Below are positions 26,749 to 50,865 of a stretch of DNA of 64,000 nucleotides, piece by piece. The first letter of the stretch is position 1; each line of letters begins with the position of its first letter. Where the stretch lies: sequence record MF547662.1. One strand, written 5' to 3'. Source of the stretch: Clostridioides phage LIBA6276. A model generated the notes under the pieces. It did not search any database, was not told the origin of the DNA, and worked only from the letters and a program-made list of their open reading frames with translations. The position numbers and the translations under genes are program-made.

Positions 26749-26812
26749 TAATTTTCCTAATCGTATATTCTTGATATAATTAATGTATCAGAATATAAGG
26801 GGGATGTTATGT
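26726..26812 (+). repeat. promoter/leader cassette copy B
   Basis: see copy A. Confidence 0.6.
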
Positions 26813-27792: not shown

Positions 27793-27853
27793 ATAAAAAC
27801 ATTAAGGCAGTCAATTGACTGTCTTTTTTTATACAAAAAAAGGAGTTGAGTAG

Positions 27854-29332
27854 ATGGTTGAAGAGTTTAAAATTAAAACCAGTATTGAACTTGATGACAA
27901 AGAAGCTAGAGAAAAATTAGAAAAGTTAAAAAATAGTGGTCAAGATAAGCCTATTAAATTAAATTTGAAAATAGGTGAATTAGATAAGTTATCACAGCAA
28001 GCAGAACAACTAAAAGGCATATTTAATAAAGCTTTCAAGATTGATAGTACTGCTTTAAGTAATTTAAAGCAAATTGAATCTACTATGAAAGAAATAAATA
28101 AACTAAGTAGAAGAAGTCAAGATAGTTTACTTGGTGGTGGCTCTGGAAATACAGGAAATATAAATAATGAACAACAAGATTTAATAAGACAATATAAAGA
28201 AATTTCAAATGTTGTGTCTAGGCTTCAAAATCAGATGAGGACAGGTTTAGGGGATAGTTCAATTGAAAGAACAACAGAGCAAATTGAAAGATTAAAAAGA
28301 CAATTGGATTCAGTGTATGCACAAATGAATTCATCATCTCAAGCTAGAATGGATATGTTTGATGCTTCAAGAGCAACAAGAGATTTAGCTGATATGAATA
28401 GAAGTCTTTCAAGAATAGAAGATATGGCAACACAAGCATCTGCTAGGCTTAATGGATTAGGCGATAATATAGATACAGATAAAGTAAATAGACTTAGGAA
28501 TGAGTTACAAGAATTAAAACAGATAGCTAGTAGAAATATAGATTTAAATCTTGATGTAGGTAATATAGTTAATAGAATACAAGAGATAAATCAAGAAGTT
28601 AGAAATTTAGAAAGAGTTGATAGCTTAAGGTCTAATTTCAGCAGAATAGAAGATTCTATTAGACAGGCATTTGGGAATGAGAGAGTTGAAGCTTTTAGAC
28701 GTTCTTTAGAGCAACTTCAAGGTTCGGCAGGAAATCTAAATGGTGATTTTAACAATATATTTGATAGACTAACAAGAGAAATGAGAGACGCGAGACAAGA
28801 AGCTGAAAGATTAAATAATACAGTTTCAAAGGGTGGAGGATTTTTTAATGATTTTTATTCATCTATAGCATCATATTCGATTGGAGATATGTTAGGAGAT
28901 GCTTTAACTGACGGAATTAGGTCTATGAAAGATGTTATATTAGAGCTTGATAGCTCTATGACTGACCTTAAAAAGGTTGCAGAACCAACAGATATTGATA
29001 GCACATCTGAGTTAGATAAGATAAGGGAAAAAGCAATACAAACAGCTAAAGATGTAGGAATGAGTGCATCACAAGTTCAAGAATCAATAGCATCTTCTTT
29101 ACAAGCAGGAATTGGAGGTATGCAAGAAAGTATTGCTGCTGCAAGACAATCAATGATACTTGCCAATGTAGGGGACATGGATGTTGAAGGTGCTTCTTCA
29201 GCAGTAAACACAATAATAAATGGATTTAGAATTGAACCTTTAAAAGAAATGCAAGTGCAGGTTGGAAATACTACAAAGAAAACAACAGAATTAACTGCTG
29301 CAATGGATATGCTAAATTGTTTGGCGTGTTAG
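27854..29332 (+). CDS. tail tape measure protein, N-terminal segment
   Basis: 492 aa, coiled-coil rich; N-terminus paralogous to remnant at 26638; tail-module position. Confidence 0.55.
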   Translation: MVEEFKIKTSIELDDKEAREKLEKLKNSGQDKPIKLNLKIGELDKLSQQAEQLKGIFNKAFKIDSTALSNLKQIESTMKEINKLSRRSQDSLLGGGSGNTGNINNEQQDLIRQYKEISNVVSRLQNQMRTGLGDSSIERTTEQIERLKRQLDSVYAQMNSSSQARMDMFDASRATRDLADMNRSLSRIEDMATQASARLNGLGDNIDTDKVNRLRNELQELKQIASRNIDLNLDVGNIVNRIQEINQEVRNLERVDSLRSNFSRIEDSIRQAFGNERVEAFRRSLEQLQGSAGNLNGDFNNIFDRLTREMRDARQEAERLNNTVSKGGGFFNDFYSSIASYSIGDMLGDALTDGIRSMKDVILELDSSMTDLKKVAEPTDIDSTSELDKIREKAIQTAKDVGMSASQVQESIASSLQAGIGGMQESIAAARQSMILANVGDMDVEGASSAVNTIINGFRIEPLKEMQVQVGNTTKKTTELTAAMDMLNCLAC

Positions 29333-35600: not shown

Positions 35601-35723
35601 AATTCACCATTTGTTGTTGTACAAGGGAATGTAACTAAAGATGTAATGCCTGAATTTGAAAAGAAGATGAGGAAAATGATTGAAGAAAATAACAAAAAAA
35701 TTATTTCTAATACTAGGTCTTAA
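29655..35723 (+). CDS. tail tape measure protein, C-terminal segment
   Basis: 2022 aa, long coiled-coil/low-complexity stretches, Gly-rich hydrophobic N-terminal region typical of TMP; frame is open from 29616. Confidence 0.6.
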   Translation: MKRGGSVLHEYGVSLGDTVGMITATNEAIQNPEKVGNGLKSVAINLAGMKVSADDGTLSLNKTAKGLKEIAGITIYKNKDTGELKNMVQLLDELKGKWGELREDEQKGLAEAIAGKQQAAIFQSLMGNYETFKEIREEFSQGLQFGSAEAENKQYLDSLAGRLNELKTIWADIFQNVFNSNTTYGFLDGLISVSNGINSVIKTLERLKLTTPALIGSFMTLKTLFSGMGMTNGTRNVARLINPLNMIGTPIKATTTILQSFRHAVMAANVAGANGANVITRAGTGLGALRKSLSRTSIGIGTLNIATSLLNGAMIGLATFAISKGIQWIDDTIHKYEKLAEKQKEVIGTTTSEISSLQQKKKSLEGISEEYNNLASKTEKTADETERFSELKQQIADIAPELVLGVDENNDPILNMSGNLDEVINKLRKAIEEKNKLLKSQEDELAITTSKTAPDTKKDLDKEKKKLDKVLEDEHNLFKNALSKSNFKEQTEALKKAYNQQETDFAEHHQKLLTEYEKYNEEEEVMQKRAINRLTNSDISKTYAKQSEQKKSKMNELVANMNWHDYSVGQQNSIISAFDKISESIPVEKLDQWNKKITDANINYQASGDMNQYTKELQGLANELQKLSGGSISADTWLIGLQQGFSGLDLASMKLHTFLKSYGSSLAELENKDSLAIKLKNQFDALNDFSQNLEVNGKINVKLLEDIQSGEAGQDLPQQLKDIINGFTFGEDSQIEAQAQLALQVTTTLQNEGQLSDDVVKQLNDLFKGKLQLTDDILKNGLKISDKLPALPGNMVQALNEQFANAFTGDNAPEITPSVNGEKAKKELKELEKFKQDTFKSDKIVTEINNKGLDFAKKDLSVLKEQLDRFKNEDTKLSFTTDCADAFKDVNSLEEARKKISAPMSLKYDIDVDKKGLTEAKKVYDILPDNLKKKIETEVIGIDKLDTLQNLIDKAPNKKETIFEIINKNPDKLNEIDEILNNVPNDKKEAVIDFIVNNLDQLEKAKNVQEFINNLPPEIKKQLGIEVEGGENAEKTVNTVQNADGTKADLLVNAEVNGESQVVECIETLDKNGNKTYTPNLNPQVNNSEKVVQCMRILDEYGNESYIPIVSPQVTNEEGLNSTKQKMDELDNKTVTSTVQIKTEGETEVEQATNFIENTNPTKVIELSINNSGKDEIDNTKQKLDELNNEKATPTIEATGAEQASKQLNQLSQKAQEIGQGNYHINVSTSTEQGAKNISGLIARVKQFLALKVSTLVFRTETAQAAKNVSGLLAKVQSYVSRYGGKTIKTTFSALTATAAKNISGLIRKIESFKSNYAGKTFTTTFVTNKVTNSSGGGGGGNSSDKTNKTERTSVTNVTPIPANLLAQPRTSEPAPISDETPVTPKPSLFSRAVSRATSAFKVIKPKVTINNDTIDSSVKYSIELFKELENAISAVTNEIALLDKKMEHATGDEKIKYLQEQNKLFAQQKDLIKQQQDGYKAESNRLKNRLKEKKMGFKFDDTGNLTNYEEKLISIEKELDKLNSKSGDKENKKDESRKKELEETKKVLEEYIKVTFTELPKCEQEWEEYNNKIKEHNEELRKAQEEMWKLNKNSTWTSMYKDVEQVNNEIAMIDVLLKNATGDEQIELLEKKKELMAKKAKELSETTAYLQETQKELQQKLQGYGFTFRDNGDITNFIQHKNQLKKNMTDEEFKRMEEAAEGYLDLLINKIPDANKEIAESKEEIEALNKEIQDAYKDQLKEAQSLQEKIRDMYKKELEERLKEIDKETKAKIDSLKKQQDAYNDSRKEAKYKDDYEEQQDVISDLEKQIAIAERDSSLSGQKKLKDLQKQLKEEQKKLQDLVQDHVDDQVNDMYDKESDRLQEEADKLKEELEKKYSDENLVDLINEAISSGKFVGLDGEVKKLQDAIIEYINKYEDGMLAMGSVTKQEWLDRLKEGKETLEDINDILDELDLSKFAMPNYNPPSNSRSRSTSPISAVNYNSPFVVVQGNVTKDVMPEFEKKMRKMIEENNKKIISNTRS

Positions 35724-35861
35724 TATATGTAATTGGTCTTTATTTATTATTCACTCATTTACTTACGTTTTATAATTTATAGTCAGATTTTTTTTGAAAA
35801 TATATATTTATCTAATAAAAAATATTGTTTATAAAAAACGTATTTATGATATAATAGTAAT

Positions 35862-36003
35862 ATAAATGATATAAATTTATATCATAAAGACATAAAAAAA
35901 GAGACTACAACTATTTGTGCTAGGGTGTCTCTTCATAAATAAGCGAAGTGTTAATTAGAGGAAGAATCACCTGAATTGCCGTTCGGGTGATTCTTAATTT
36001 TTT
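35862..36003 (+). ncRNA. candidate type I antitoxin sRNA (locus 1)
   Basis: TGATATAAT extended -10 at 35847-35855; rho-independent terminator GAATCACC..GGTGATTC + T-run 35964-36003; antisense to 3' end of toxin ORF. Confidence 0.35.
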
Positions 36004-36130
36004 GCAACGTTTTCTTAAACTCATCTATTTCTTTAAAGAGTCTATTTAAATTCTGAACCAACTTAATCAAACTAATAATTATAGTTGTAAGAAATGTTAT
36101 TATCGTTAACAAACAAATTAGATATTTCAT
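35951..36130 (-). CDS. small membrane peptide, type I toxin-like (59 aa)
   Basis: MKYLICLLTIITFLTTIIISLIKL.. TM helix + charged tail; GGAGGTG RBS; own promoter TTAACA-17-TGGTATAAT; long 5' UTR. Confidence 0.45.
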   Translation of the reverse strand: MKYLICLLTIITFLTTIIISLIKLVQNLNRLFKEIDEFKKTLQKIKNHPNGNSGDSSSN

Positions 36131-36391
36131 AATATCATATCACCTCCCCTCTTGATTTGACATGGGAAGGCTTATGTATATGAAGATTCACCCTAATAGT
36201 TTTTTTATGTAGTCTCTAAAAATATTATACCATAAATTACCAATATGTTAAATTTAATATTATATTGTCTACAATTGTAAAAGAATATTGTGTTCTAAGA
36301 AGTTATTCTATTAATAGTATAGCTTTTTTATTTTTCAATGAAGATAATGACAACATTGACTATTTTGATAATATTGGAGTATAATAGTAAT

Positions 36392-36545
36392 ATAAATGAT
36401 ATAAATTTATATCATAGGGACATAAAAAAGAGACTACAAACTATTTGCTGTAGGGTGTAGTTCTTAAAGTTAACAATAAAAAGAATAGATTTATGTATTA
36501 CTTTCAGAATCACTAGACCCGCCAGTCTGGTGATTCTTTAGTTTT
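36392..36545 (+). ncRNA. candidate type I antitoxin sRNA (locus 2)
   Basis: -10 TATAAT 36380-36385; terminator AGAATCAC..GTGATTCT + T-run at 36507-36545. Confidence 0.35.
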
Positions 36546-36652
36546 CTAATAGATGCTTTCAAGTTTAAGATTGCATCTATTAGCTTTGTCAAATGATTGA
36601 TTATTCTTGTAATCATAATTATCATTATTAAAAACAAAACTAAGTACTCCAT
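36491..36652 (-). CDS. small membrane peptide, type I toxin-like (53 aa), paralog of 35951-36130
   Basis: MEYLVLFLIMIIMITRIINHL...KNHQTGGSSDSESNT; GGGGTG RBS. Confidence 0.45.
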   Translation of the reverse strand: MEYLVLFLIMIIMITRIINHLTKLIDAILNLKASIRKLKNHQTGGSSDSESNT

Positions 36653-36910
36653 AGTCTCACCCCCTTTCTTACTGGGGATTTTAACTAAAGAGCCATCACC
36701 CTAATAGTCTAAACTGTAGTCTCTAAAAATATTATACCATAATTTTCCAATATGTTAAATTTAATATTATATTGACGACAGGAGTAGAATAAAGATATAA
36801 TACAGATAACAGAAAATTTAAAAATTTTACATAAGAATTACTACTTATCTATGCCACCTTAAAAAGTGGCTATTTTTCTATTCTGGTATATATTTAAGGA
36901 GGTGTTACAA

Positions 36911-37066
36911 ATGATAAATAATATAGAAGATTGTAAGCTTCTTATTGAGGCAGAAATAAGAATGAAAGATATAGATGAAAAAGAACTAATATCTCAAAGG
37001 GAGATTCTGAAAGACCTAAATATTAATGAAAAAGACCTTGAAGATATTGAAGTGAATTTTGAATAA
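36911..37066 (+). CDS. small acidic protein (51 aa)
   Basis: ATG 36911 after AAGGAGGTG; the six-frame ORF starts at 36866. Confidence 0.3.
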   Translation: MINNIEDCKLLIEAEIRMKDIDEKELISQREILKDLNINEKDLEDIEVNFE

Positions 37067-37201
37067 TGAAATGATTTATAATATACCTATTTTAAATATG
37101 TATTAGTTGATATCAGTAATCGTCTTTATCTAGTGATTTTTTATTTATTAACTGTAAACGAATCTGTTTTACAAAAAACGTATCTGTGGTATAATAAAAG
37201 T

Positions 37202-37307
37202 AAGGAATTTAATCTACTTAATACAAAGAGTGATTGTTTCCTTAAAGTTAATTAAAAATTAATTTATCTTTTGAAACCACTCTTATTGGCGTCTGAGTGG
37301 TTTTTTG
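37202..37307 (+). ncRNA. candidate type I antitoxin sRNA (locus 3)
   Basis: TGGTATAAT at 37187-37195; terminator AACCACTC..GAGTGGTT + T6 at 37275-37307. Confidence 0.35.
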
Positions 37308-37380
37308 CTTTATCATATATGTAACAAGCTATTAAACTTGTTGCAATATTTAGGCAAATATTAAACACTACTGTTTCCAT
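37264..37380 (-). CDS. type I toxin-like peptide (38 aa)
   Basis: METVVFNICLNIATSLIACYIYDKAKNHSDANKSGFKR: hydrophobic helix + YIYDK + basic tail; GGAGGTG RBS; paralog at 57552-57683. Confidence 0.5.
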   Translation of the reverse strand: METVVFNICLNIATSLIACYIYDKAKNHSDANKSGFKR

Positions 37381-37582
37381 AAATTCACCTCCTTATAAAA
37401 AAATAAAGCGAGGCTCACCTCCTTCCTTTGAAGAAGTAGGCTAAATACAGAAACAACCACTCTTAGCACTTTCGATTTAAAATTCCTTACTATACTAGAT
37501 TATACCATAATTTTACAATTAATAAAATATTTTAGCTCATCTTAATTGATGGGCTTTTCTAATACAAAGAAGGTGATAAAAT

Positions 37583-39298
37583 ATGCATTTTAATGTGAAT
37601 CTTAAACAGATAAAATCTGATTACACATTAACCATTCACAAGATGAACAAATCATTTTTAGGTCAAATTCCAATCAACTTTTTAAACTCGATAAAGCGGG
37701 AGCTTGGTGGAGTAGATGAAATACAACTGACCATTCCAAAATATATTACAGATAGATTTTTATTTAATAAAATAATAAATCCCATTTTTGAAGAAGTAAA
37801 AGAAGAACGTCTTATTTGTCTTAATAATAAAGAGTACTTTGTAATTAAGAATGTTGTAACAACAGATGATAAGTTAAAAGTAGTAACAGCTAAATCTAAA
37901 GAAGTTAAACTAGGAAAAATTGATGTGAATATTGAGGACTATGGATTACAGATGTTTACCAAAGATGAAGAAGCATCTATTATATCTCTTAATGATTATT
38001 TAAAACAAGAGACAGGCTGGAAACTTGGTTATGTGGATGATTCAATTGCTTATGAAACTGATAGTGAAGGTAATAAGAGAGAAAAGGTAAGATGGCAAGA
38101 AAGTATTAATTCTAACTGGTTAGACTATTTTAATAATGAACTAAAAGAACAATTTGAATGTATAGCTGATTTTGATACTTATAATAATTTAGTTAATTTG
38201 TATCATATAGATAGTTTTGGAGATAACATTCAGTTATATTTATCTCATGATAACTACATAAAATCACTTGAAAGAACTACAAATAGTGATGATATAGTAA
38301 CTAGACTGAAGCTTGAAGGTAGTGAAGATATGAATGTAATAGGAGCTACAGTTACAGGATATGATTACATTGAGAACTATTCTTATTTCTTAGACAATAA
38401 AGAAATGAGTGAAGAACTTAGTAGAGCTATAAAGAAATACCAAGAAATGAATGAAATAAGAGAGCCAATTTGGAGAGAACTAATAGATACAAAGCTTAAG
38501 AAGCAAAGAGAACGTGATAGTAAAAGCAACGAATGGCAAATGGTAATAGAGATGATAAGTAAGAAAAAAGATATAAAAAAGACATATGATAATCCACAGC
38601 ATAAAGATGAAATAAATTCAGCTAAAATAGCAGTAGAGATAAGTGAACTAGAAGATAAAAAAGTCATATTGGATGTTCAAATAAAACATTTAGAAGAAGA
38701 AATAGCTAAGTTAAATGAAAGTATAAAAGATATAAATATTCTTTGTAAGAGGGAGACTTCAACTGATGAGGATGGATATCTAATATTTAATGAGGTTCTA
38801 TTAGATGAATTAAATGAGTTCCTCTACTATGACACTTATACAAATGATGCTTTTTTAAAAGTTGAAGATTTAATAGCAGAAGGTAAAAGGCAATTAAGTT
38901 TGAAATGTATTCCAACACGAGAATGGACTCTGGATGTTATAAACTTCTTAGATAGAATTATAGATATTAATTTTAGACAGCATTGGAAGGGTGATTTGAG
39001 CTTAGGAGATATTATAGTGTTACATAGCAAAGAATCTAAAGAAGAAGAATTAGTATATTTTACATCTTTTACCCAGAATTTAAAAAACGGGAAGTTAGAT
39101 ACTTTAGAATTAACTTTAAGTAATAAAAAAATAAAAGAAGATGACAAAAGAACTATAGCTGATTATTTGACTAAAGCTGAACACGCAACAAGAACATTGA
39201 ACTCTAAAAGACATTTATTTATTCAGCAACAGAAGAAAAGAATTAACCTACCAGATGAATATATTCCTAAGAAAAATATACAAAAGGAGTTGATGTAG
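37583..39298 (+). CDS. putative distal tail protein (Dit-like)
   Basis: 571 aa; first gene after TMP/TA loci; RBS GAAGGTGATAAA. Confidence 0.4.
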   Translation: MHFNVNLKQIKSDYTLTIHKMNKSFLGQIPINFLNSIKRELGGVDEIQLTIPKYITDRFLFNKIINPIFEEVKEERLICLNNKEYFVIKNVVTTDDKLKVVTAKSKEVKLGKIDVNIEDYGLQMFTKDEEASIISLNDYLKQETGWKLGYVDDSIAYETDSEGNKREKVRWQESINSNWLDYFNNELKEQFECIADFDTYNNLVNLYHIDSFGDNIQLYLSHDNYIKSLERTTNSDDIVTRLKLEGSEDMNVIGATVTGYDYIENYSYFLDNKEMSEELSRAIKKYQEMNEIREPIWRELIDTKLKKQRERDSKSNEWQMVIEMISKKKDIKKTYDNPQHKDEINSAKIAVEISELEDKKVILDVQIKHLEEEIAKLNESIKDINILCKRETSTDEDGYLIFNEVLLDELNEFLYYDTYTNDAFLKVEDLIAEGKRQLSLKCIPTREWTLDVINFLDRIIDINFRQHWKGDLSLGDIIVLHSKESKEEELVYFTSFTQNLKNGKLDTLELTLSNKKIKEDDKRTIADYLTKAEHATRTLNSKRHLFIQQQKKRINLPDEYIPKKNIQKELM

Positions 39299-39299
39299 A

Positions 39300-41228
39300 T
39301 TGATATTAGATAATTCACCAGCGGATAGCTGGATAAGAATTACTGGAGTAATTGTTACTTACAATAACACACTTTATCAAGTAGTAGATAAAGAGACAAA
39401 TAAAAAATATATATACTGGGATGCTGATAATCCAGGGACATTGAAAGTTTCTAATGTAAGATTACCAGAAGGAAATACACAATTTTTAGTAGTTGTAAAT
39501 GATAATGGAAAGCATACAGAAGTTCCTACAAACTCATCAATATTCAATATATCTTTTGATGGTAATTCAAGAAAAAATACTGAAGAACAAATCTGGGGAT
39601 TGTATGAAACAGATGAAAAACACAATGAAAAGTTTGTAGTTATTGAAAAAGATATTGATGGAATACATCAAACAGTTTTAGAGGTACAAGAAGATGCATC
39701 TCATATAAAAGAAAATATGTCTCTTATAGACCAGAGAGCTGAAAATGTAAATATATTAGTAAAAGAAGTAACTAAAAATTTTGGTGGTTCACAAGAAAAT
39801 ATAACATTAAGAGAAAACATAAATAAGGCTATAATTAAGTTAAATACAGACTTAGGAACATTTAGCTCTAATATGTCTAATTATTTTAACGATAATGAGA
39901 TTACAGATGAAGAAAAAGAAAAGATTGATATTGAACTTAATTTATTAGATACAGACAAAGCAAGTTTATATACAGAGCTACAAAAACTTATTGATAGAAC
40001 TACTGGAGTAGACTTAGTAGCAATAAACACTTCAAAAACAGCATTGGATGCAGCAAGTACCAATCTAAACTCTATAATTGATTCAGTTATTTCAGATAGT
40101 ATAATTACACCTTCAGACAGAATTTTAGCTATAAATGCAAATGCTCAATATAACTTAAAGATAAATGAACTTAAAAATACAGTGGATAGAATTTATATAA
40201 CAGGTATGGGTGGAAGTATATCAGAGGAATTTTCACAGATAAATGCTACAGCTAAAGAAATAAAATTAGAAGTAGCAAAAGTTGATGGTGCAACTAAAAC
40301 AAATGCTGCTGAAATTAAATTAACTAAAGACGATATAACAATGATGGTTACAAGGAATAATTCTGGCTCAATTGTAGGAATTAAACCTGATAAAATTGAA
40401 TTTGGATTCAATGATATATCAAATTATGTAGAGATAAGCAGGAGTGGTCTAACAGTAAATCAAGGAGCTATAGCATGTGATATATTAACTACTCCATCTG
40501 GTCATGAACCAATAATCAGATTATTTGGAAGTAGTAGGTCTGGATTTGCAATAGATGCAAGAAGGTCTGATGGTTCTAGTCAAGCCTCAGCAATAAGATT
40601 AAAATATGATAGCAATAATTATTTTTGGGTAGGATATGATACTGCTGAGATTTATGTTGATGGAGAAGAACACTTTATTGTTGAAAGAGATGATACTTTT
40701 GTAAGATGTGGAGGAGCTACATTTACATTTACAAATGGAGATAGTTTAGGTATAGGATATTCATTTTATCCAGAGCGTTCATCAACTGATTTAGGTTGTG
40801 ATGATTATAAATGGAGGTATTTATATTCACGTTCTACTCTAAGTGAATCTGACAAAAAGTTTAAAGAGAATATAGTATACATAAAAGATATTAAGAATAG
40901 AACTCGTTCAAGTATAACGCCAACACCATTTTTAGATTTTATAAAAGATGAATTTAAACCAGCAACATTTGATTATATTGTATCAGCAGAAAAAGATAGA
41001 ACAATTGCAGACAGTCAAATAGGGTTTATAGCTAATGATTTTAAAGATAGTTATGTTGGAAAAACATTTCTATATGATTATGGAGAAGAAAATGGATTAA
41101 TGTTTAGCCCATCTGGTTATACAACTGTTGTAGCAACTGCACTTCAAGAGGAAATACAAAAAAGAGAAGAATTGGAAATGATAGTTAGTGAATTAAATGA
41201 GAAAATTAATAATTTAGGAGGATATTAA
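39300..41228 (+). CDS. putative tail-associated (Tal-like) protein
   Basis: 642 aa, TTG start abutting previous stop; position after Dit. Confidence 0.35.
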   Translation: MILDNSPADSWIRITGVIVTYNNTLYQVVDKETNKKYIYWDADNPGTLKVSNVRLPEGNTQFLVVVNDNGKHTEVPTNSSIFNISFDGNSRKNTEEQIWGLYETDEKHNEKFVVIEKDIDGIHQTVLEVQEDASHIKENMSLIDQRAENVNILVKEVTKNFGGSQENITLRENINKAIIKLNTDLGTFSSNMSNYFNDNEITDEEKEKIDIELNLLDTDKASLYTELQKLIDRTTGVDLVAINTSKTALDAASTNLNSIIDSVISDSIITPSDRILAINANAQYNLKINELKNTVDRIYITGMGGSISEEFSQINATAKEIKLEVAKVDGATKTNAAEIKLTKDDITMMVTRNNSGSIVGIKPDKIEFGFNDISNYVEISRSGLTVNQGAIACDILTTPSGHEPIIRLFGSSRSGFAIDARRSDGSSQASAIRLKYDSNNYFWVGYDTAEIYVDGEEHFIVERDDTFVRCGGATFTFTNGDSLGIGYSFYPERSSTDLGCDDYKWRYLYSRSTLSESDKKFKENIVYIKDIKNRTRSSITPTPFLDFIKDEFKPATFDYIVSAEKDRTIADSQIGFIANDFKDSYVGKTFLYDYGEENGLMFSPSGYTTVVATALQEEIQKREELEMIVSELNEKINNLGGY

Positions 41229-41396: not shown

Positions 41397-43472
41397 TTGA
41401 AAAATTATGAAATAAAGAATCATACCATAGAAGTAGATTTTAGTAATTATAGAATAAATAAAAGGTTACTAGACTATTTTATTTATAATGAAAATGATGT
41501 TAAAACAGCTTATATTGAAGCAATATTGAAAAATAAAGATGAAATAATAGATTTATCTGAATATGATAGAGTTTTAGTTAGCATTACAAAAAGTGATGGA
41601 CAAAAGGTTAATGGTGAATGTGAAGTTGTAGATGCAGAAAATGGTGTTGTAGAGATAGAACTTAGTCGACAAGCACTTGCAAGTGTTGGTATAAATACAT
41701 TTCAACTATCCCTTGTGAAAGAGGGAACTCTACTTAATACTACAAATCTTTATTATAGAGTTGAAGAGGGTATGATTAATGATGATGATATCACCTCAAC
41801 TGATGAATATGGAGTATTATTGGTAATAATAGCCCAAGCAGAAGAGATTATAAAAAACAATAAAGAGTTAACTAAAAGAGTTGAACAACTTGAAATAACT
41901 ATCTTAGGAAATGAAGAAGTTAGGGATAAAGCAGAGCAGATTAGGATTTATAATGAAGATATAAGAAACATACAAGAAGAAGAAAGAGAGTTTAATGAGT
42001 TAACACGTCAAAACCAAGAAGCAAATCGTGAAGAATCCATTCAGAATATGCAAATCCAAGTTGATGATAAACTTACTGATTGTCAACTCCAATTAGATGA
42101 AATGATAGATGCCAAGTCTGAAGAAATAGACAATATTGTTGATGATAAAATGCTTGATGTCCAAGCTCAAACAGATAAGAAATTTCAGGACTTAGATACT
42201 AGAGCTAATAATATTTTTGATTTATATGATAAGACATTTGAAGATAAGCTTACAGACAACCAAGAACAAATTGATTATAAACTTGATGAAGTAAATCAGG
42301 CTATATCTAATGTAGAAGATTGTATTGATAAAAGTACTACAAAATTAGATACAAAGATAAAAGAAATAGATGACAAAATAGTTGAAGTAAATACTGCTAA
42401 GACAGATATGACAACAACTGTATCTAACAAAATAACTGAATTTGAAAATAGATTTAGTGAATTAGAAAGTCTTGATGCTAGAGGCGAGTTAATACAAGCT
42501 AGAGAAACTATTGATGGAAATGTAAAGGACACTTTAAAGGATAGATTAACATATGATTTTGAGAAAGTTAATGAGAAAATTGCTGAGATGACTTCTGCTG
42601 CAACTAATGTAGCTTTTAGTAAATCTTATGTTGAATCGGATTGGGTTGCTGATGGAGAATATTTTAAACTTATAGTTAATCATAATTTAGTTACAGAAAA
42701 TATATTTGTAGCAATATTAGATGAAGCAACTAAGAAAAGTATGACTAATTCTTATACTATAGTAGATTCTAATACGATAGAAATATTTAATGAAAGTAAC
42801 ATAAATGTAAGAGTAACTGTTGTAAATGGTAATACAAACAAAGAAGTTATACAAGCTACAATAAATGATAACATAACAACACTAGATAGTACTTATTCTA
42901 GTGTTAAAATTGATGCAAAAATTGATGAGAGTCTAATTAAGATAAATGAAAATAAAAGTAATATAGCTACTAACTTAGAGAAGATAAATCTAATACAAAA
43001 TAAAGTTGGTTCAAGTGAATTAAGTACAATATCTAAAAATATATCAGATGCAGTAAATGAATTAGATGCTAGTGTAAAAATTCTTGAGGCTGGTGGAAAC
43101 TTAGGTCAACAATTAGACAGTTTAAAAGCCAAGTATGACGCACTTTCTAATAAAGTCTTAGATATAGCAGTTTATTTGGAATTGGAATCTGGCTTACTTC
43201 CAGATGAAGTAGGACACTGGTTTGATGGTTTGTCTGATGATAAAGCGATATTATCTATTGATGGAGATTTAAAACTAGATACAGAAAATAGGAAAATACA
43301 AGGTGCTACTGGTAGTGTTACATTCAATAGAATAACAATTCCTTTTGAATGTAAAAAATTAAGATATATACATGAACTAAATGATAATTATATAGAAACT
43401 GTATCTGATAAGAATATATCTATTGGTACAACTATAATAGATTTAGACAAATATTCTTACGAAATTAAATAA
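41397..43472 (+). CDS. tail fibre-like coiled-coil protein
   Basis: 691 aa, TTG start; central long acidic coiled-coil (DDKL..QLDEMID.. repeats) and C-terminal beta-rich region. Confidence 0.4.
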   Translation: MKNYEIKNHTIEVDFSNYRINKRLLDYFIYNENDVKTAYIEAILKNKDEIIDLSEYDRVLVSITKSDGQKVNGECEVVDAENGVVEIELSRQALASVGINTFQLSLVKEGTLLNTTNLYYRVEEGMINDDDITSTDEYGVLLVIIAQAEEIIKNNKELTKRVEQLEITILGNEEVRDKAEQIRIYNEDIRNIQEEEREFNELTRQNQEANREESIQNMQIQVDDKLTDCQLQLDEMIDAKSEEIDNIVDDKMLDVQAQTDKKFQDLDTRANNIFDLYDKTFEDKLTDNQEQIDYKLDEVNQAISNVEDCIDKSTTKLDTKIKEIDDKIVEVNTAKTDMTTTVSNKITEFENRFSELESLDARGELIQARETIDGNVKDTLKDRLTYDFEKVNEKIAEMTSAATNVAFSKSYVESDWVADGEYFKLIVNHNLVTENIFVAILDEATKKSMTNSYTIVDSNTIEIFNESNINVRVTVVNGNTNKEVIQATINDNITTLDSTYSSVKIDAKIDESLIKINENKSNIATNLEKINLIQNKVGSSELSTISKNISDAVNELDASVKILEAGGNLGQQLDSLKAKYDALSNKVLDIAVYLELESGLLPDEVGHWFDGLSDDKAILSIDGDLKLDTENRKIQGATGSVTFNRITIPFECKKLRYIHELNDNYIETVSDKNISIGTTIIDLDKYSYEIK

Positions 43473-43488
43473 ATAGAGGTGGAAAAAC

Positions 43489-46400
43489 TTGAAAGAAAAT
43501 AAATTAATACAGCGTGGAAGATATTTTGATACTATTTATGAGATTGAGGATTTTGAACCAGAATTTGATAAATATGATTTTGTTAAAATGTTTACTTCAA
43601 AATATATAGACTGTACATATGGTTTGAAATCTGATGAAACATTGTGGGTAACAGGAAATAATCAAGTGGTTGGAAAATATAGTCCAAGAAATAATAACAT
43701 TTCACGTAGAGTAGATACATTTACAAAAATTGATGGGGTATCCAATATAAAAGATATTGCAATAGGAAGTGAGCATACTGTAATTTTAAAAAAAGATGGA
43801 ACTTTATTAGGTGTTGGTCAAAATTCAAATGGAGCATTAGGGCTTGGGGGAGATATTACAGTAGCAACAACTTTTACTAAACTACCTATAGAAGATGTTG
43901 TGAAAGTTGTTGTTGGAAGTGGACTTACTATAGCATTAAAATCTAATGGAGAGTTGTATTTTACTGGTTATAATGGTAGTCAACAATTTGATAACTTAGA
44001 GAATACAAATACTTTTATTAAATTATCAATAACAGATGTAAAGGATATAGATTGTGGTGATGGTTTTACTTTTATATTAAAAACTAATGGGGAATTATAT
44101 TCATGTGGTAGTAATTCATATGGACAATTAGGACTAGGAGACAATACTAATAGAAATACTTTTACTAAAGTTAATATAGATAATGTAAAAGAAATATCTT
44201 GTGGTAGATACAATTCATTTATAATAAAAAATGATGATTCTTTATATGGATGTGGATACAATACAGAAGGTCAATTAGGATTAGGTGATATTACCAATAG
44301 AAATGTATTTACCAACATGGCTCTTAATGTAAAAAAAGTTGTATATGGAATAAATTCTACTATAATTCTAAAAAATGATGATTCTTTATATGGATGTGGA
44401 CGAAATACATATGGACAATTAGGTTTGAGAAATGTTCCTAATCCTAAAACATTCATTAAAATTGGTATAAATAATATAAAGGACATATATTGCGGAAATA
44501 ATCATACGATTATGATAAGAAATGATAATAAACTTTTATTCTGTGGAACTAATAGAGAATCACAAATAGGCAATCCAAATAATATAAATTATCCTGTAGA
44601 CGTATTTACAGAATATAAAAGTGCTGAGGTGTTGGGATATAATAAATCTGTTACCATGAACAATAAAAACTATCTTATAAAAGAAAATGGGGATTATATT
44701 TGTTATGGAAACATAAAAAAAATTGTATCTGTTGAAGGTTCGACTTATGCATTACTAGAAAATGGTGAACTATGGGTATCTGGGAATAATACAGATGGAC
44801 AATTAGGATTAAATCATAAAGTAACTCAAAATTATTTTACTAGAGTTCCAATAGATAATATAAGAGATGTTGTTTGTGGTGCTTACTATGCTTTTATAAT
44901 AAAAAACGATGATACTGTATGGGTGACTGGACTTAATAATTCTGGGCAATTAGGAACTGGCAATACTTCTCAACTACAAAAATTTACAAAAATCTCCATA
45001 GATAATGTAAAAAAAATTGCATGTGGTCGTTCTCATGTTTTAATATTAAAAAATGATAATAGTATATGGGGTGCAGGAGCAGGTTATTATTTAGGAATAG
45101 GTACTACTAGTAGTACAGGTATAACATCCTTTACAAAAGTTCCTATAGATGATGTAAGAGATATAGCATGTGGATATGAATGCTCTATAATATTAAAAAA
45201 TGATAATAGTATATGGGGTGCAGGAGCAAATCATAGTGGTCAATTAGGGAAAACCTCAAATAATAGTGTGGAAAAATATTTTATAGAATTATCTATAAAT
45301 AAAGCAGTAAAGGTGAAAGAAATATATTGTGGGATTTATCATACATTAATATTGAAAACTAATGGAGAATTATATGGATGTGGTAGTAATACACAAGGAC
45401 AATTAGGAAGAAGGATTTCTACAGACAAATTAGAACAATTTACTTTAATAGAAACTGATACCACTCATATATGTAACAATCATTGCGAATCATATAATAC
45501 ACTTATAATAGATTCTATCGGAAGGTTAAAAGCTACTGGTCAAAATAATTATAATCAATTAGGTTTAGAAAATAATAAAACTACACTAATAGAAAGTTTT
45601 ACTCCTACAAATATTGTAATCGGACAAGGTAATAATAGATATATTGCTGGTGGTAGTGATTGTACATTTTTAGTAAAAACTGATGGTAAAGTGTATGGTA
45701 TAGGAAATAGACTTAATGGAAGGTTTGGTACAGGTTCAGATAGTGTAGCAGCATCTACATTTACAAGAATTGGTTTTGAATTTAATAGTACAGAAATAGA
45801 CTATAATAATGATTTTAGGATAGCAACTACTAATGTAAATGATTATATGAGTGTCTTTTTAAAAAAAAGTAATGGAGAATTATATGGTGTGGGGAATAAC
45901 ACATATGGTCAATTAGGTATCGGAAACAATTCTACATGTCATTACTTTTATCCAATAAATATAAAAAATATAAAAGATGTGATATGTGGATTAAATTATA
46001 CCTTAATATTAAAAAAAGATGGAGAGTTATTAGTTACAGGTAATACTTCAAGTCAAAAAGCATTAGACACCAAAACCTTGTTAACTAGTGAACCGTATAG
46101 ATTTAATCAAGTGAGTACTATAAGTAATGTAGAAAAGGTTGTATGTGGTTCACTAATTGTTTTTGCGTTACTTGGTGATGGAAGATTATATAGTACAGGA
46201 ACTAATACATATGGTCAATTAGGATTAGGTGATATTGCCAATAGAGATAGTTTTGCAAGGGTCAATATAAATAATGTAAAAGAAATTGCGTGTGGGATAA
46301 GTCATACATTAATATTAACAAGTAATGGAGAATTATATGCCACAGGGAGAAATGATGAAGGTCAATTAGGACTAGGAGACAATACTAATAGAAATACTTT

Positions 46401-48372
46401 TACTAAAGTTAATATAAATAATGTAAGAAAAGTAATATGTGGTGCTTATTACACATTGGTGTTAACAAATGATGGAGAATTATATGCTACTGGAAGAAAT
46501 AAAGAGGGGCAGTTGGGACTAGGTGATATTGTTAATAGAGATACTTTTACTAAAGTTAATATAGATAATGTGAAGGAAATATCCTGTGGTCTTGACCATA
46601 CATTAGTATTGAAAAATAATGGAGAATTATATGGATGTGGGAGTAATGGACAGGGGCAATTAGGATTAGGAGATAACACTGGCAGAAATACTTTTACTAA
46701 GATTAATATAGATAATGTTAAAGGTATTAATGCAGGTGGTCGTTCATCTTATATTTATAAAAACGATGGAAGTGTTTTTTCTACTGGACAAAATACATAT
46801 GGATTATTAGGATTGGGTGATGTTACTAACAGAAATATTTTTACTAAGGTTAATATTAAAATTTTTGACTTTGAAAAAATAACAGATTGTATAGTCAATA
46901 ATAATTTTAATTTAGTAAATAATAAATTTTTAATACCTACAAAAGATACTAAATATCAACATTATGTAACTTCGTCTGATGATTTTAATTACAACGAAAT
47001 ACTAGGCTCTCAATATCCTGTTTCACCTTATGCTAATGAAGTATTAGAATTGCCTTTCAATAATATAAAAGAATTTTGGATGTCTAAAACACATTCTTTA
47101 ATTGTTAATACTGATGGAGAATTATATGGATGTGGTAAAAATACTTATGGACAATTATTAAATCCATTAACAACAACTTCTTTGCTAGAGTTTACTAAGT
47201 TAAACTTTGATAATATTAAACAAGCTTCATGTGGAAATGGATTTTCATATTTTGTTAGAAATGATGGAGCTTTATTTTCTTGTGGTTTAAATTCAAATGG
47301 TCAATTAGGACTGGGTCATAATAATGATGTTTCTGAACCTCAACTGATTACAACAATATCTAATGTAAAAAAAGTAATGTGTGATAATAATTTTACATTA
47401 GCTTTATTAAATAACAATGAATTGTATGCACAAGGATACAATAGATTTGGTAACTTTGGTTTAGGTGAAGAGAAAAAAGATACTATAATACCTTTATTCA
47501 CTAAAATTGCTACAAATGTGGAAGATGTAGAAATAGGCACTAATTATATTTTACTTAGAAAAACAGATAATACAGTTTATATTAGTGGTAGAATAAGAGA
47601 TTGTTATAATATAGAAGAAAACAATATATATGTTTTTAATGAAATTAAAACACCTTCTAGTATATACAAAGAAAATTTAGTATGGGTTAATCCTGTAAAT
47701 GATGAAACTGTATCTTTAATTTATAAAGTAAATTCAGTTAATTCAACTATTGAAATTATTGAAAAAACAATCTCTGGAATAAAGTTAAAAATAAATGATG
47801 ATGGTAATGAAATTATAAAAATAGAAATGTATATAAATAATGAGTTGATTACTACTATGACAGAATTTACAAATAAATATTCTCAATTTACCATACCATT
47901 AGATAAATTAGTTCTTGGGAGAAATAATATTGTATTTAAAGGATATGATAATTTTAAAGGAAATATATATACTTCTTTGACAATAAATAAAGAAAATAAT
48001 TCTATATATGTATCTGAAAATTCAAGTTTATTAATTAATGGAAAAAGATATACTGTTCAATCTGTTTCAGAATCTGAGGGTAAGGTCACAGTAAATTTAG
48101 ATAGAGGTTTAGAAGGAAATGTTAATGTGGGTGATATAATATATCAATTAATCAATAGGTTAAATGTTCAAATAAAAACTAATAACACTGGTATGCATAA
48201 AGATGCTAAATTGCTAGAAATGAAAAAAGTTGACACAGGTTATCAAGAAATATATGAGTTTAAAGAAAATGGAATTAAAGAAGTAGAACCTAAAATTATT
48301 GTAAATGGAAATGAAGATACAGCAATAAAAAGACCATCTATGATATTTTCTATAGATGAGACTACACTTTAG
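43489..48372 (+). CDS. giant RCC1-like beta-propeller repeat protein (putative tail fibre / receptor-binding protein)
   Basis: 1627 aa; >20 tandem ~50-aa repeats of ..NGELY.CG.N..GQLGLGD.TNRN.FTKVNI.NVK.I.CG..H.. (RCC1/ATS1 signature); TTG start after GAGGTGG. Confidence 0.55.
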   Translation: MKENKLIQRGRYFDTIYEIEDFEPEFDKYDFVKMFTSKYIDCTYGLKSDETLWVTGNNQVVGKYSPRNNNISRRVDTFTKIDGVSNIKDIAIGSEHTVILKKDGTLLGVGQNSNGALGLGGDITVATTFTKLPIEDVVKVVVGSGLTIALKSNGELYFTGYNGSQQFDNLENTNTFIKLSITDVKDIDCGDGFTFILKTNGELYSCGSNSYGQLGLGDNTNRNTFTKVNIDNVKEISCGRYNSFIIKNDDSLYGCGYNTEGQLGLGDITNRNVFTNMALNVKKVVYGINSTIILKNDDSLYGCGRNTYGQLGLRNVPNPKTFIKIGINNIKDIYCGNNHTIMIRNDNKLLFCGTNRESQIGNPNNINYPVDVFTEYKSAEVLGYNKSVTMNNKNYLIKENGDYICYGNIKKIVSVEGSTYALLENGELWVSGNNTDGQLGLNHKVTQNYFTRVPIDNIRDVVCGAYYAFIIKNDDTVWVTGLNNSGQLGTGNTSQLQKFTKISIDNVKKIACGRSHVLILKNDNSIWGAGAGYYLGIGTTSSTGITSFTKVPIDDVRDIACGYECSIILKNDNSIWGAGANHSGQLGKTSNNSVEKYFIELSINKAVKVKEIYCGIYHTLILKTNGELYGCGSNTQGQLGRRISTDKLEQFTLIETDTTHICNNHCESYNTLIIDSIGRLKATGQNNYNQLGLENNKTTLIESFTPTNIVIGQGNNRYIAGGSDCTFLVKTDGKVYGIGNRLNGRFGTGSDSVAASTFTRIGFEFNSTEIDYNNDFRIATTNVNDYMSVFLKKSNGELYGVGNNTYGQLGIGNNSTCHYFYPINIKNIKDVICGLNYTLILKKDGELLVTGNTSSQKALDTKTLLTSEPYRFNQVSTISNVEKVVCGSLIVFALLGDGRLYSTGTNTYGQLGLGDIANRDSFARVNINNVKEIACGISHTLILTSNGELYATGRNDEGQLGLGDNTNRNTFTKVNINNVRKVICGAYYTLVLTNDGELYATGRNKEGQLGLGDIVNRDTFTKVNIDNVKEISCGLDHTLVLKNNGELYGCGSNGQGQLGLGDNTGRNTFTKINIDNVKGINAGGRSSYIYKNDGSVFSTGQNTYGLLGLGDVTNRNIFTKVNIKIFDFEKITDCIVNNNFNLVNNKFLIPTKDTKYQHYVTSSDDFNYNEILGSQYPVSPYANEVLELPFNNIKEFWMSKTHSLIVNTDGELYGCGKNTYGQLLNPLTTTSLLEFTKLNFDNIKQASCGNGFSYFVRNDGALFSCGLNSNGQLGLGHNNDVSEPQLITTISNVKKVMCDNNFTLALLNNNELYAQGYNRFGNFGLGEEKKDTIIPLFTKIATNVEDVEIGTNYILLRKTDNTVYISGRIRDCYNIEENNIYVFNEIKTPSSIYKENLVWVNPVNDETVSLIYKVNSVNSTIEIIEKTISGIKLKINDDGNEIIKIEMYINNELITTMTEFTNKYSQFTIPLDKLVLGRNNIVFKGYDNFKGNIYTSLTINKENNSIYVSENSSLLINGKRYTVQSVSESEGKVTVNLDRGLEGNVNVGDIIYQLINRLNVQIKTNNTGMHKDAKLLEMKKVDTGYQEIYEFKENGIKEVEPKIIVNGNEDTAIKRPSMIFSIDETTL

Positions 48373-48385: not shown

Positions 48386-48712
48386 ATGAACGTAAATATA
48401 AATGAAGAAAAAATTGAAAAGCTTAAGCAGAAAAAGAAAATAAGTAATTTAAATATAAGTCAAAAAACGCAAGATAATGACATTACAGATTTAATGTTAG
48501 CAACTGCTGAAATATGTGAAATGGTATTAAGTAGTCAACAGACATCTACTATGTCATTAAGAAATATAAAATTAAATGAAGGAGGAAGTAGTATGGCAGC
48601 AATTTATGTGGGATTGATAGAGAGAGGTTTAAAAACAATTGACCAAGTACCTGTAAAATACAGAGAAGAAGTAAGAAAAATGTGTGAAGCATTAGAGATT
48701 TCATTATCATAG
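48386..48712 (+). CDS. hypothetical protein
   Basis: 108 aa ORF. Confidence 0.3.
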   Translation: MNVNINEEKIEKLKQKKKISNLNISQKTQDNDITDLMLATAEICEMVLSSQQTSTMSLRNIKLNEGGSSMAAIYVGLIERGLKTIDQVPVKYREEVRKMCEALEISLS

Positions 48713-48790: not shown

Positions 48791-49120
48791 TTGTTAAATG
48801 AAGAGGTAGTAAAAAAATTAAAGAATGTACCTAGCGACACTAATAATGCAATAGAAACTGCTAAAACAGAGATTAACAACAAAATAGGTGATACAACACA
48901 ACTTACTACAACAGATAAAACAAATATAGTTAGTGCATTAAATGAGGTAAAAACTAGCGTAGATAGCATAGAAACAACAGCAGAGAAAACAAGTTATAAT
49001 AATGCAACAAGTAATCTTACTGCTACAAATGTTCAAGGGGCGATTGATGAAGTTGTTAGAAAAATAGAAAATTTTAATGAGGTTAATATATCTATACAAA
49101 ATGATATGTTACCTATTTAA
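48791..49120 (+). CDS. hypothetical protein
   Basis: TTG start after GAAGGTGATAAA; 109 aa. Confidence 0.3.
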   Translation: MLNEEVVKKLKNVPSDTNNAIETAKTEINNKIGDTTQLTTTDKTNIVSALNEVKTSVDSIETTAEKTSYNNATSNLTATNVQGAIDEVVRKIENFNEVNISIQNDMLPI

Positions 49121-49136
49121 GATAGGAGAGTGAAAA

Positions 49137-50852
49137 ATGGCTATAGTTTATGAATTTAATTATACAGGTGCTGAACAAAGTGTAGTGTTGCCACCTGGTA
49201 AATATAAGTTTGAATGTTTTGGTGCTTGTGGTGGTAATTATTATGATTTTGTACAGTGTGCAAAAGGTGGCTATACTGCTGGTTCTTTAATATTGAAAGA
49301 AAATACTACATTACATGTTTACGTTGGGCAAAGTGGTTATTGTAAAGGTGTTAATGGTATTGAGACTTGTAGAAGTGGTTTTAATGGTGCGGGTGGTATA
49401 ACCACTTATAAAAGTACTTCTGATGGTTATTATAGTCTTGCAGGTGGTGGAGCTACTGATATTAGACTTATTGGTGGTAACTGGGATAATTTACAAAGTT
49501 TGCTATCTCGCATAATTGTTGCAGGTGGTGGTGGTGGTGGAAGCGGAAATTCACATGATAGTATTGGTCATGGTGGTGGTACAAAAGGTAAAGATGGTAT
49601 TTCTATAGCAAATAAATATTTTGCAGGCGGTGGAAGCCAATTTCAAGGCGGTTTAACTTTTAATAGTCTTTATAATGGTTCTTTTGGTGTAAGCGGTGCT
49701 GGAGATGGCATTAGTGGTGTTGGTGGCGGTGGTGGTTGGTATTGTGGTGCAGGTAGTTTTTATGCTGAATTTGGTGGTGGTGGAAGTGGATATATTCTAA
49801 CAAAAGATAGTTATAAGCCAGCAAATTATAGTCCATCTTCTAAATATTATTTTAGCGATATAAATAGCGTTGTAGGTGGAAATACTACGAAACAAGATGG
49901 TTATGCTAAAATAACATTACTCCAAGCATTACCTTTTTTAACTATATCCTCTTATAATTCCACTACAGCTACATTTAAAGCTGACCACACAGACCCTACA
50001 TTGCTTACAAAAATAGAATATTTTATAGATGATGTACTAAAAGAAACTATAACAACAGATTTAACAACAGAGAAAATAATTAACTATACATTAGAAGATA
50101 ATACACTACACACACTTAAGATAGTTGTCACAGACAGCGCTAATGCTACAGCAGAAAAAGTTGTAAGTATAAGCAAAGGAATTGCACCTCTTCCTGCTGG
50201 TTCTACAACAGATGAAGTTACAAGTAAATGGATAGAAATTAAAGATGCATTTAAAAGTGGCAAAACAAGTATTATAAACACTTTAGCATTAAAGAATATA
50301 GAAGCAAGTTTAAATAATACGCTAGTTGAATTATCAGAGAAAATAAAAACAAGTTTTGACAGTTCTGACGCTAGTGTGCAGGATTTGATGAACCAGTTAA
50401 CACAAGCTAATAACACTATAAGTCAGTTAAATTCTAAATATAAATATGCCAGTGGTACTATTGATGTTGTTAAAAATAGTTCTTTAATGGCTAATTTATA
50501 TGGAGAGTCCTTTGGTAGACAACCTGGTACTTGGCTTAAGATTGATAATTTAGGTTTTATTCCTAATATTTTTGTTGCTGAATGCCAATATGTTACTTCT
50601 AATAATTATTTTTTTAAACATATTGTTATTGCTACTTGTAATATAAATTGGTTTTGGGATAAAAAAGATTTTTCAGCTAGAATTGTATTTACTAAAGAAA
50701 AAAATTCTAATCAAGATTTTAGTGGAAGTGGAATTATTTATTCAAATAATGAGTGTGATGTATATATAAATAATAAAGGCATTAATGTTCCTGCAAGTAG
50801 TCCTAATGTTTCTAGTTACCTACATTCTTGGCATGCTATAAAATTTATATAA
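49137..50852 (+). CDS. glycine-rich tail fibre-like protein
   Basis: 571 aa with long Gly tracts (AGGGGGGSGN..GGGTKGKDG..GGGGGWYCGAG) and C-terminal beta-rich domain. Confidence 0.4.
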   Translation: MAIVYEFNYTGAEQSVVLPPGKYKFECFGACGGNYYDFVQCAKGGYTAGSLILKENTTLHVYVGQSGYCKGVNGIETCRSGFNGAGGITTYKSTSDGYYSLAGGGATDIRLIGGNWDNLQSLLSRIIVAGGGGGGSGNSHDSIGHGGGTKGKDGISIANKYFAGGGSQFQGGLTFNSLYNGSFGVSGAGDGISGVGGGGGWYCGAGSFYAEFGGGGSGYILTKDSYKPANYSPSSKYYFSDINSVVGGNTTKQDGYAKITLLQALPFLTISSYNSTTATFKADHTDPTLLTKIEYFIDDVLKETITTDLTTEKIINYTLEDNTLHTLKIVVTDSANATAEKVVSISKGIAPLPAGSTTDEVTSKWIEIKDAFKSGKTSIINTLALKNIEASLNNTLVELSEKIKTSFDSSDASVQDLMNQLTQANNTISQLNSKYKYASGTIDVVKNSSLMANLYGESFGRQPGTWLKIDNLGFIPNIFVAECQYVTSNNYFFKHIVIATCNINWFWDKKDFSARIVFTKEKNSNQDFSGSGIIYSNNECDVYINNKGINVPASSPNVSSYLHSWHAIKFI

Positions 50853-50865
50853 ATGAGGTGATAAA

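Follow-up and report, generated by a model that had tools for sequence, protein, structure and literature searches.

Diffocins, the contractile, headless R-type particles of Clostridioides difficile, carry a receptor-binding protein (RBP) of about 200 kDa termed RtbM, which is described as the primary determinant of their killing spectrum and is predicted to contain three 'WD40' propellers (2026 IUCrJ review, PMC13324602). Binding of the S-layer protein SlpA and determination of the spectrum have been reported for diffocins and Avidocin-CDs (PMC13324602 among the sources). Mounting of a foreign RBP on a diffocin was found to require fusion of the distal part of that RBP's cognate adaptor to the proximal part of RtbL, and small downstream genes were found to raise diffocin activity; the chaperone role ascribed to them comes from the same work (Gebhart 2015). 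A second architecture, PtsM, is described for PtsHN10M, which binds the low-molecular-weight (LMW) subunit of SlpA directly (PMC9615553). In 2018 the tail modules of phiCD5763, phiCD211 and their relatives were described as encoding proteins that resemble the diffocin RBPs CD630_13740 and CDR20291_1218 (24-100% identity), and in phiCD5763, an infectious siphovirus, the RCC1 protein was proposed as a putative RBP (PMC5786514). Here we examine one such protein of 1627 residues, encoded at positions 43489-48372 on the plus strand of a 64,000-nucleotide stretch of Clostridioides phage LIBA6276 (MF547662.1), the whole of which we call the window. Our analysis indicates that it is probably a receptor-binding protein of the RtbM family, attached by way of an RtbL-like adaptor tip. 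This central interpretation, an RtbM-like RBP, is already published; literature searches on RCC1 together with phiCD211, or together with receptor-binding protein and beta-propeller, found no paper. As far as the literature read shows, what we add are increments to it, namely a map of the 7+7+7+~4 blades and immunoglobulin-like (Ig-like) domains, the RtbL-tip and RtbN homologies in a siphophage, and a regional variability map along with a blade-expansion allele and its 41-nt repeat.

The gene is one intact open reading frame (ORF) with a TTG start and no internal stop codon. Pfam profiles recovered in its product PF25390 (WD40_RLD, an RCC1-like domain; E=6e-242, 802.6 bits against a cut-off of 150), PF00415 (RCC1; 13 stretches, 454.8 bits against a cut-off of 21.7) and PF13540 (RCC1_2; 17 stretches), such that its tandem signature repeats of about 50 residues exceed the curated thresholds for RCC1-family membership. 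Membership of the WD40 repeat family was considered and ruled out, as the matches are to RCC1 families, of which PF25390 is WD40 in name only; the 'WD40' applied to RtbM in PMC13324602 is a description of propeller shape. Using a blade hidden Markov model (HMM) built iteratively from the protein itself, we located 24 confident blades and one marginal blade, which fall into groups of seven (residues 44-397), seven (420-779), seven (790-1143) and three to four (1204-1371). A 60-residue linker separates the third group from the last, and the 256 residues from 1372 to 1627 give no RCC1 signal with this HMM. The initial annotation had described more than twenty tandem RCC1 repeats of about 50 residues; the count stands, and the repeats make up discrete propellers instead of a single uniform array, as follows:

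43476-43482, plus strand: Shine-Dalgarno sequence GAGGTGG, read from the sequence, 6 nt 5' of the TTG start and directly 3' of the preceding gene's stop codon
43489-48372, plus strand: RCC1-repeat protein, RtbM-type putative RBP, 1627 residues
43489-43617, plus strand: N-terminal segment, residues 1-43, with the motif MKxNKLLQRGxYF invariant across alleles; residues 1-27 disordered in the monomer model
43618-44679, plus strand: propeller 1, residues 44-397, seven blades (blade HMM, AlphaFold2 model, Foldseek match to UVR8)
44746-45825, plus strand: propeller 2, residues 420-779, seven blades (blade HMM); the most variable region, 19-43% identity between alleles
45856-46917, plus strand: propeller 3, residues 790-1143, seven blades (blade HMM); holds the most regular 147-nt tandem array, 46195-46856
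46918-47601, plus strand: domain 4, residues 1144-1371, linker and about four blades forming an incomplete propeller (blade HMM, model); better conserved than propellers 1-3
47602-48369, plus strand: non-RCC1 C-terminal domain (CTD), residues 1372-1627, with two all-beta subdomains (~1397-1501 and ~1513-1606) followed by a conserved tail ending in TAIKRPSMIF

Structural modeling is consistent with this map. An AlphaFold2 model of residues 1-420, computed with an alignment of 21 diverse alleles (pTM 0.80; pLDDT mostly >90 over residues 28-360 and about 32 over residues 1-27), superposes on UVR8 over about 375 columns at an rmsd of 2.6-3.3 A, with TM-scores of 0.72-0.74 by query and 0.79-0.83 by target. 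The initial annotation had made its reading depend beforehand on a beta-propeller fold, and in this model residues 28-360 indeed form a complete seven-bladed RCC1-type propeller. Propellers 2 and 3, with their 7+7 blade counts, would adopt the same seven-bladed form. A second model, of residues 1140-1627 (mean pLDDT 85.6), contains about four RCC1 blades, two all-beta domains and a short tail, with domain 4 (pLDDT >90) superposing over about 250 columns on UVR8 and HERC2 at 3.2-3.6 A. The first beta domain of the CTD, which gives a sub-threshold Pfam hint to Big_7 and is exactly the subdomain matched by Big_7-repeat proteins in an exhaustive HMMER search, is predicted to be an Ig-like, Big_7-like domain. 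When this C-terminal model was searched by fold in the PDB and BFVD, the RCC1 blades accounted for most of the matches, and the CTD is assigned no further than as an Ig/Big_7-like unit plus a second beta domain.

By sequence the CTD is rare: it found no match among PDB sequences and one in a word-indexed protein search, and the exhaustive HMMER search of 1.84 billion proteins recovered only 29 cluster representatives, mostly RtbM-type RCC1 proteins. It is always C-terminal in the 78 relatives. As it is also joined to another N-terminal domain, DUF6273, and as one 420-residue protein consists of only about four blades and the CTD, domain 4 and the CTD behave as a modular core. Pfam listings of Phage_fiber_C, KH_9, CBM9 and other families for the relatives proved spurious, all of them lying inside RCC1 blades with no independent stretch. 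These searches also bear on whether the protein might be a surface-degrading enzyme, i.e. a beta-propeller depolymerase that digests a surface polymer. Some propeller-fold phage tail proteins are glycosidases, and the tail module has other fibres of unassigned activity; however, every sequence and fold match is to a non-enzymatic RCC1-like propeller (UVR8, RPGR, HERC or RCC1) and the Pfam scan matched no catalytic family in the protein, making an enzyme of this kind very improbable.

The RtbM-family assignment draws on the relatives of the protein and on their gene contexts. The window, a siphovirus genome, has genes for terminase, capsid and lysis, and the RCC1 gene lies in the tail-fibre part of its tail module, where its immediate partners are:

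41397-43472, plus strand: 691-residue coiled-coil fibre protein (phrog_13479, 'tail fiber protein'), read as the adaptor; residues 1-565, the tail-side part, are conserved among phiCD211-like phages
42993-43472, plus strand: distal tip of the adaptor, residues 533-691, homologous to the protein at the diffocin RtbL position over the distal half of the latter; the RCC1 protein is proposed to dock here
48386-48712, plus strand: 108-residue homologue of the RtbN-position protein (42% identity, E=2e-25), putative fibre assembly chaperone

A database search recovered, among the relatives of the RCC1 protein, proteins of 1726 and 1773 residues on C. difficile chromosomes. The two chromosomal clusters that we examined (L006 and L007) encode in order a sheath, a tube, an assembly chaperone, an 817-residue tape measure, an NlpC/P60 hub-hydrolase, a DUF2577 protein, a sheath initiator, Baseplate_J, Mu gp48, a 327-residue Phage_tail_fib protein, the RCC1 protein and two small genes, after which come regulators and ordinary host genes. 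Since this order matches the published diffocin order, we identify these clusters as diffocin loci; their RCC1 proteins (P0083 and P0040) are encoded directly 3' of the Phage_tail_fib gene. In a BLASTP comparison with P0083 the phage protein aligns over residues 1-520 at 31% identity (E=1e-60) and over residues 788-1623, the CTD included, at 33% (E=2e-121). Over its full length, from the N-terminal motif to the CTD, it is homologous to the protein encoded at the diffocin rtbM position.

The relationship extends to the upstream partner. The adaptor tip matches residues 166-327 of the 327-residue diffocin adaptor (L006, 9001-9981) at 47% identity (E=8e-42), from a point just past the PF12571 baseplate-side domain of the latter. 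The window shows a natural equivalent of the fusion made by Gebhart 2015, in which a siphovirus-specific adaptor body carries an RtbL-type distal tip. Being a siphovirus genome, it does not encode the contractile, headless R-type particle; as that particle is a mark of diffocins and not of the RBP family, we place the 1627-residue protein in the RtbM family of RBPs without calling it part of a diffocin.

This context also weighs on a non-structural role inside the host cell, for which propagated names are the only evidence ('regulator of chromosome condensation', 'DNA condensation protein' and the nucleotide-metabolism category of PHROG). The gene lies between tail-fibre genes and upstream of the lysis genes, its product is homologous to the RBP-position protein of the diffocin, an element without a genome to condense, and RCC1 proteins have been detected in the purified virions of phages W70 and GAP32. 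To our knowledge bacteria have no Ran GTPase on which an RCC1-type exchange factor could act. We regard an intracellular role as scarcely credible, and the RCC1 name on this protein is a label of fold only. The PHROG families phrog_7220, phrog_16766 and phrog_4219 are filed under 'DNA, RNA and nucleotide metabolism: regulator of chromosome condensation'; as their members sit in tail modules and are detected in virions, this category looks like an artefact of name propagation. RCC1 propellers had been called unusual as phage host-recognition modules, which holds for their frequency alone (RCC1 proteins occur in 110 of 50,697 phage records); they are not new, as shown by the GenBank annotation, the 2018 RBP reading and the RCC1 proteins found in virions.

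Comparison of alleles places the RCC1 protein at the center of variation in its module. Among phiCD211-like phages nucleotide identity is about 94% in the flanking tail genes, and amino acid identity is 97% in the upstream 642-residue tail protein and only 29-50% between the RCC1 proteins: the RCC1 gene is a hypervariable cassette in an approximately 94% conserved tail module and the most divergent gene in it. Relative to phiCD211 the 691-residue adaptor is 97% identical over residues 1-530 and then diverges, with the break point at about residue 565. In a region-by-region comparison of seven loci, whose pairs are not independent so that Spearman values are indicative only, the identity of the adaptor tip varies with that of the RCC1 allele (Spearman 0.64 for all pairs and 0.90 among siphophages, against about 0 for the adaptor body). 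Inside the RCC1 protein, divergence is greatest in propellers 1-3, propeller 2 in particular, and conservation is better in the 43 N-terminal residues, domain 4 and the CTD.

The RCC1 proteins of 1773 and 1726 residues, alternative alleles of a single diffocin locus, display a similar pattern, with 40% identity overall, 62% in the CTD, only 26-42% in the propellers and 26% in propeller 2. Given that their adaptor bodies are 100% and their chaperones 99% identical around these divergent proteins (the adaptor tips being 81% identical), the replaced diffocin cassette is sharply bounded. As the killing spectra of diffocins are attributed to RtbM, we infer that the propellers are likely specificity determinants and the conserved parts a likely structural and docking core. 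The initial annotation had proposed the C-terminal region as the part to test for binding to the host surface; the better conservation of the C-terminus and the variation of the three propellers, mainly the second, point instead to the latter as the likelier specificity determinants. A phage-like metagenome contig (L009, positions 9001-19502; ERZ28594470 scaffold_147) encodes two giant RCC1 proteins in tandem, of 1657 and 1632 residues, each preceded by a protein of about 170 residues, an arrangement that suggests duplicated adaptor-RBP modules.

A further layer of variation is seen in the blades themselves. The RCC1 gene has a 147-nt (49-residue) periodicity, most regular at 46195-46856 according to Tandem Repeats Finder and a repeat finder. 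A 23-mer had been singled out as one of its near-identical repeats; its four copies are real, with none expected by chance, and their coordinates required correction by 1-3 nt, two being exact (45361 and 46618), one having a single mismatch (47113) and one three mismatches (44086). The longest perfect direct repeat is a different one:

45041-45081 and 45188-45228, plus strand: 41-nt perfect direct repeat with copies 147 nt apart, at the starts of the blades at residues 518 and 567

Repeat-number variation, which had been predicted from these repeats, is found among the relatives as a natural allele with exactly two extra blades. Its protein (P0001) is that of the window with the blade ILKNDNSIWGAGAGYYLGIGTTSSTGITSFTKVPIDDVRDIACGYECSI present three times against one copy in the window, and in its DNA (L010) the 147-nt unit corresponding to window positions 45041-45187 is triplicated with 100% identity, in frame and between identical flanks. 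The allele comes from one draft assembly contig recorded under two samples. The expansion falls in propeller 2, which it would bring to nine blades, and the 41-nt direct repeat would be an obvious substrate for unequal recombination or slippage. Another relative (P0008) has a one-residue insertion within the expansion blade. A 1522-residue relative (P0013) was considered as a case of blade loss and rejected, being only a gene call that is shorter at the N-terminus.

Downstream of this cassette the window encodes a second fibre module and then the lysis genes:

48791-49120, plus strand: 109-residue tail-collar fragment matching phrog_2137 positions 161-267 of 267, i.e. only the distal part of PtsL-type adaptors
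49137-50852, plus strand: 571-residue PtsM-type RBP with a glycine-rich (Gly-rich) N-terminal domain and a C-terminal head (PF12810, solved-chain match)
50866-51159: 97-residue protein
51458 onward: lysis genes

The RCC1 gene had been placed between the coiled-coil fibre and the Gly-rich fibre; it does lie in the tail-fibre region, with two small genes (108 and 109 residues) preceding the Gly-rich gene. The 571-residue protein contains PF12810 (E=3e-45), and its residues 288-571 match the solved chain 31he_AAA, 'Tail fiber protein' (E=1e-81), which gives it the PtsM architecture described for PtsHN10M. The phage accordingly carries RtbM-type and PtsM-type modules in tandem. The stretch 48791-51159 is common to C. 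difficile myophages at 82-93% nucleotide identity, which makes it mosaic between sipho- and myophages.

This second module raises the question of which protein makes the decisive contact. The RCC1 protein might be an accessory adhesin or second fibre, making a reversible first contact or binding a secondary receptor such as a cell-wall protein or polysaccharide, with the PtsM-type protein as the primary, irreversible SlpA-binding RBP. Favouring this, the downstream module is complete, comprising the PtsL-type distal fragment, a PtsM-type RBP with a solved homologous head and a small gene; PtsHN10M binds the SlpA LMW subunit directly (PMC9615553); the 2026 review raises the same two-RBP question for myophages having both a PtsM-like protein and a 'WD40-fold' fibre (PMC13324602); and the module varies between relatives, one of which (L008) lacks the 571-residue gene and has other genes in its place. 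On the other hand, diffocins have only the RCC1-type protein at the RBP position, where it is reported to be what primarily sets the killing spectrum, and the RCC1 gene is the most divergent of the tail module, as expected of the main specificity determinant. On balance we consider an accessory role of the RCC1 protein unlikely. A tentative proposal, to which we give a similarly low probability, is that rapid change in blade number and content through the 147-nt-periodic repeats might act as a fast host-range switch, which with the PtsM-type module would make up a dual, independently evolving RBP system for several S-layer cassette types.

Returning to the RtbM-family reading, these observations are best accommodated if the 1627-residue protein belongs to a side fibre on the tail tip, as its distal, host-recognizing subunit, the phage being a large temperate siphovirus of C. 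difficile of the phiCD5763/LIBA2945 type. The 691-residue coiled-coil protein would anchor to the tail by its conserved N-terminal ~565 residues and offer its RtbL-like distal ~125-160 residues as the docking site. The RCC1 protein may dock there via its N-terminal peptide, domain 4 with the C-terminal Ig-like domains, or both, and the 108-residue RtbN-like protein may assist assembly. The three seven-bladed propellers, the second above all, would then be hypervariable surfaces that confer strain specificity, most probably by binding SlpA, the variable S-layer protein; by analogy, SlpA is a plausible ligand. Diversity could arise by two routes: exchange between phages and diffocin loci, in which adaptor tip and RCC1 gene move together as one cassette, and gain of blades by recombination or slippage between the 147-nt-periodic repeats.

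Several points weigh against this reading. The virion location, docking geometry, chaperone role and SlpA ligand are what we infer, and the fold, homology, synteny, variation and blade variant what we observe. The PtsM-type RBP directly downstream belongs to a family with direct evidence of SlpA binding, and the RCC1 protein may not be the primary or only RBP. The correlation between adaptor tip and RCC1 allele could reflect linkage of adjacent DNA within recombination blocks and not co-adaptation. Synteny, size and the 2018 statement are what links P0083 and P0040 to the published RtbM accessions, the CD630 and R20291 accessions not having been returned by the cluster look-up. Finally, the two-blade expansion is known from one draft contig, as an allele seen in sequence only.

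The remainder of the tail module is annotated as follows from PHROG and GenBank:

29655-35723: 2022-residue tape measure protein
37583-39298: tail-tip protein
39300-41228: tail-tip protein

The RCC1 gene is 100% identical, and at the same coordinates, in Clostridioides phage LIBA2945 (phiCD5763, MF547663.1; 132.5 kb, circular), where it is annotated as 'RCC1 domain-containing protein / alpha-tubulin suppressor', and an identical 1627-residue protein is encoded on 90 contigs, some of them labelled plasmid. The Gly-rich protein (49137-50852) has a 50-residue in-frame insertion in its Gly-rich domain relative to its counterpart at MF547663.1 49137-50702; elsewhere the two proteins are the same, and the difference reflects either a genuine indel between isolates or a repeat collapsed in one assembly. 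Between the tape-measure gene and the next tail gene (35723-37583) lies an ORF-poor region of 1.9 kb with a tandemly duplicated unit of about 530 nt, each copy of which has a small minus-strand ORF (35951-36130, 59 residues; 36491-36652, 53 residues) that codes for a hydrophobic helix with a charged tail and adjoins terminator-like hairpins. To judge from these features the duplicated units resemble type I toxin-antitoxin modules; scanning the window for Rfam families and tRNAs gave no match. Further upstream, a regulatory island at 22795-29332 (a regulatory protein, an antirepressor, an ATPase and others) splits the structural block, separating the head and neck genes from the tape-measure gene; such an island within the structural genes was noted in 2018 (PMC5786514).

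C. difficile phages and diffocin-derived Avidocins are under development as precision antimicrobials whose strain range is set by their RBPs. Of the two main types of RBP, one is the RtbM/RCC1 family, without an experimental structure or a mapped binding site. The present maps provide construct boundaries for swap and binding work, setting the variable propellers apart from the N-terminal peptide, domain 4 and the Ig-like core, and delimiting the adaptor tip and the RtbN-like partner.

Placed among known systems, the phage protein resembles eukaryotic RCC1, UVR8, RPGR and HERC1/2 in its seven-bladed RCC1-type propeller and repeat signature, with no functional relation implied, and differs from them in having three and a half propellers in one chain, fused Ig-like domains and a tail-module setting. 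Phage-encoded RCC1 propellers are also found in jumbo and other phages (W70 gp237-239, GAP32 GAP_001, the 121Q/PBECO4 paralogues, SP-15 and Jenst), some of them in virions by mass spectrometry, but these are mostly single-propeller proteins of ~380-870 residues, ~23-30% identical, without the CTD or RtbL/RtbN-type partners. The PtsM-type RBPs of C. difficile myophages and Avidocin-CDs are alike in role, i.e. strain-specific S-layer recognition, and in the logic of adaptor, RBP and chaperone, whereas their fold is unrelated, with a Gly-rich N-terminal domain and a dimeric beta head; the Pfam scan found no PF12810 in the RCC1 protein. The counterparts in phiCD211/phiCDIF1296T, AR1086-1, ES-S-0107-01 and ES-S-0173-01 share position, architecture and termini with it and differ in sequence (29-50% identity) and length (1593-1760 residues), as different specificity alleles. 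The closest system is diffocin RtbM (CD630_13740 / CDR20291_1218; Gebhart 2012, 2015 and Kirk 2017, cited in PMC13324602 and PMC5786514) from the same host species, with which the phage protein shares the N-terminal motif, multiple RCC1 propellers, a partial fourth propeller, the same CTD and wide allelic diversity, along with a locus in which an adaptor with a homologous distal half is followed by the RCC1 protein and a homologous small protein. The two are nevertheless distinct, with ~32-37% identity and lengths of 1627 against 1726-1773 residues; the phage protein would be carried on a non-contractile siphovirus tail via a 691-residue adaptor, whereas the diffocin has a 327-residue PF12571 adaptor on a contractile particle, and only the phage gene is followed by a PtsM-type RBP module.

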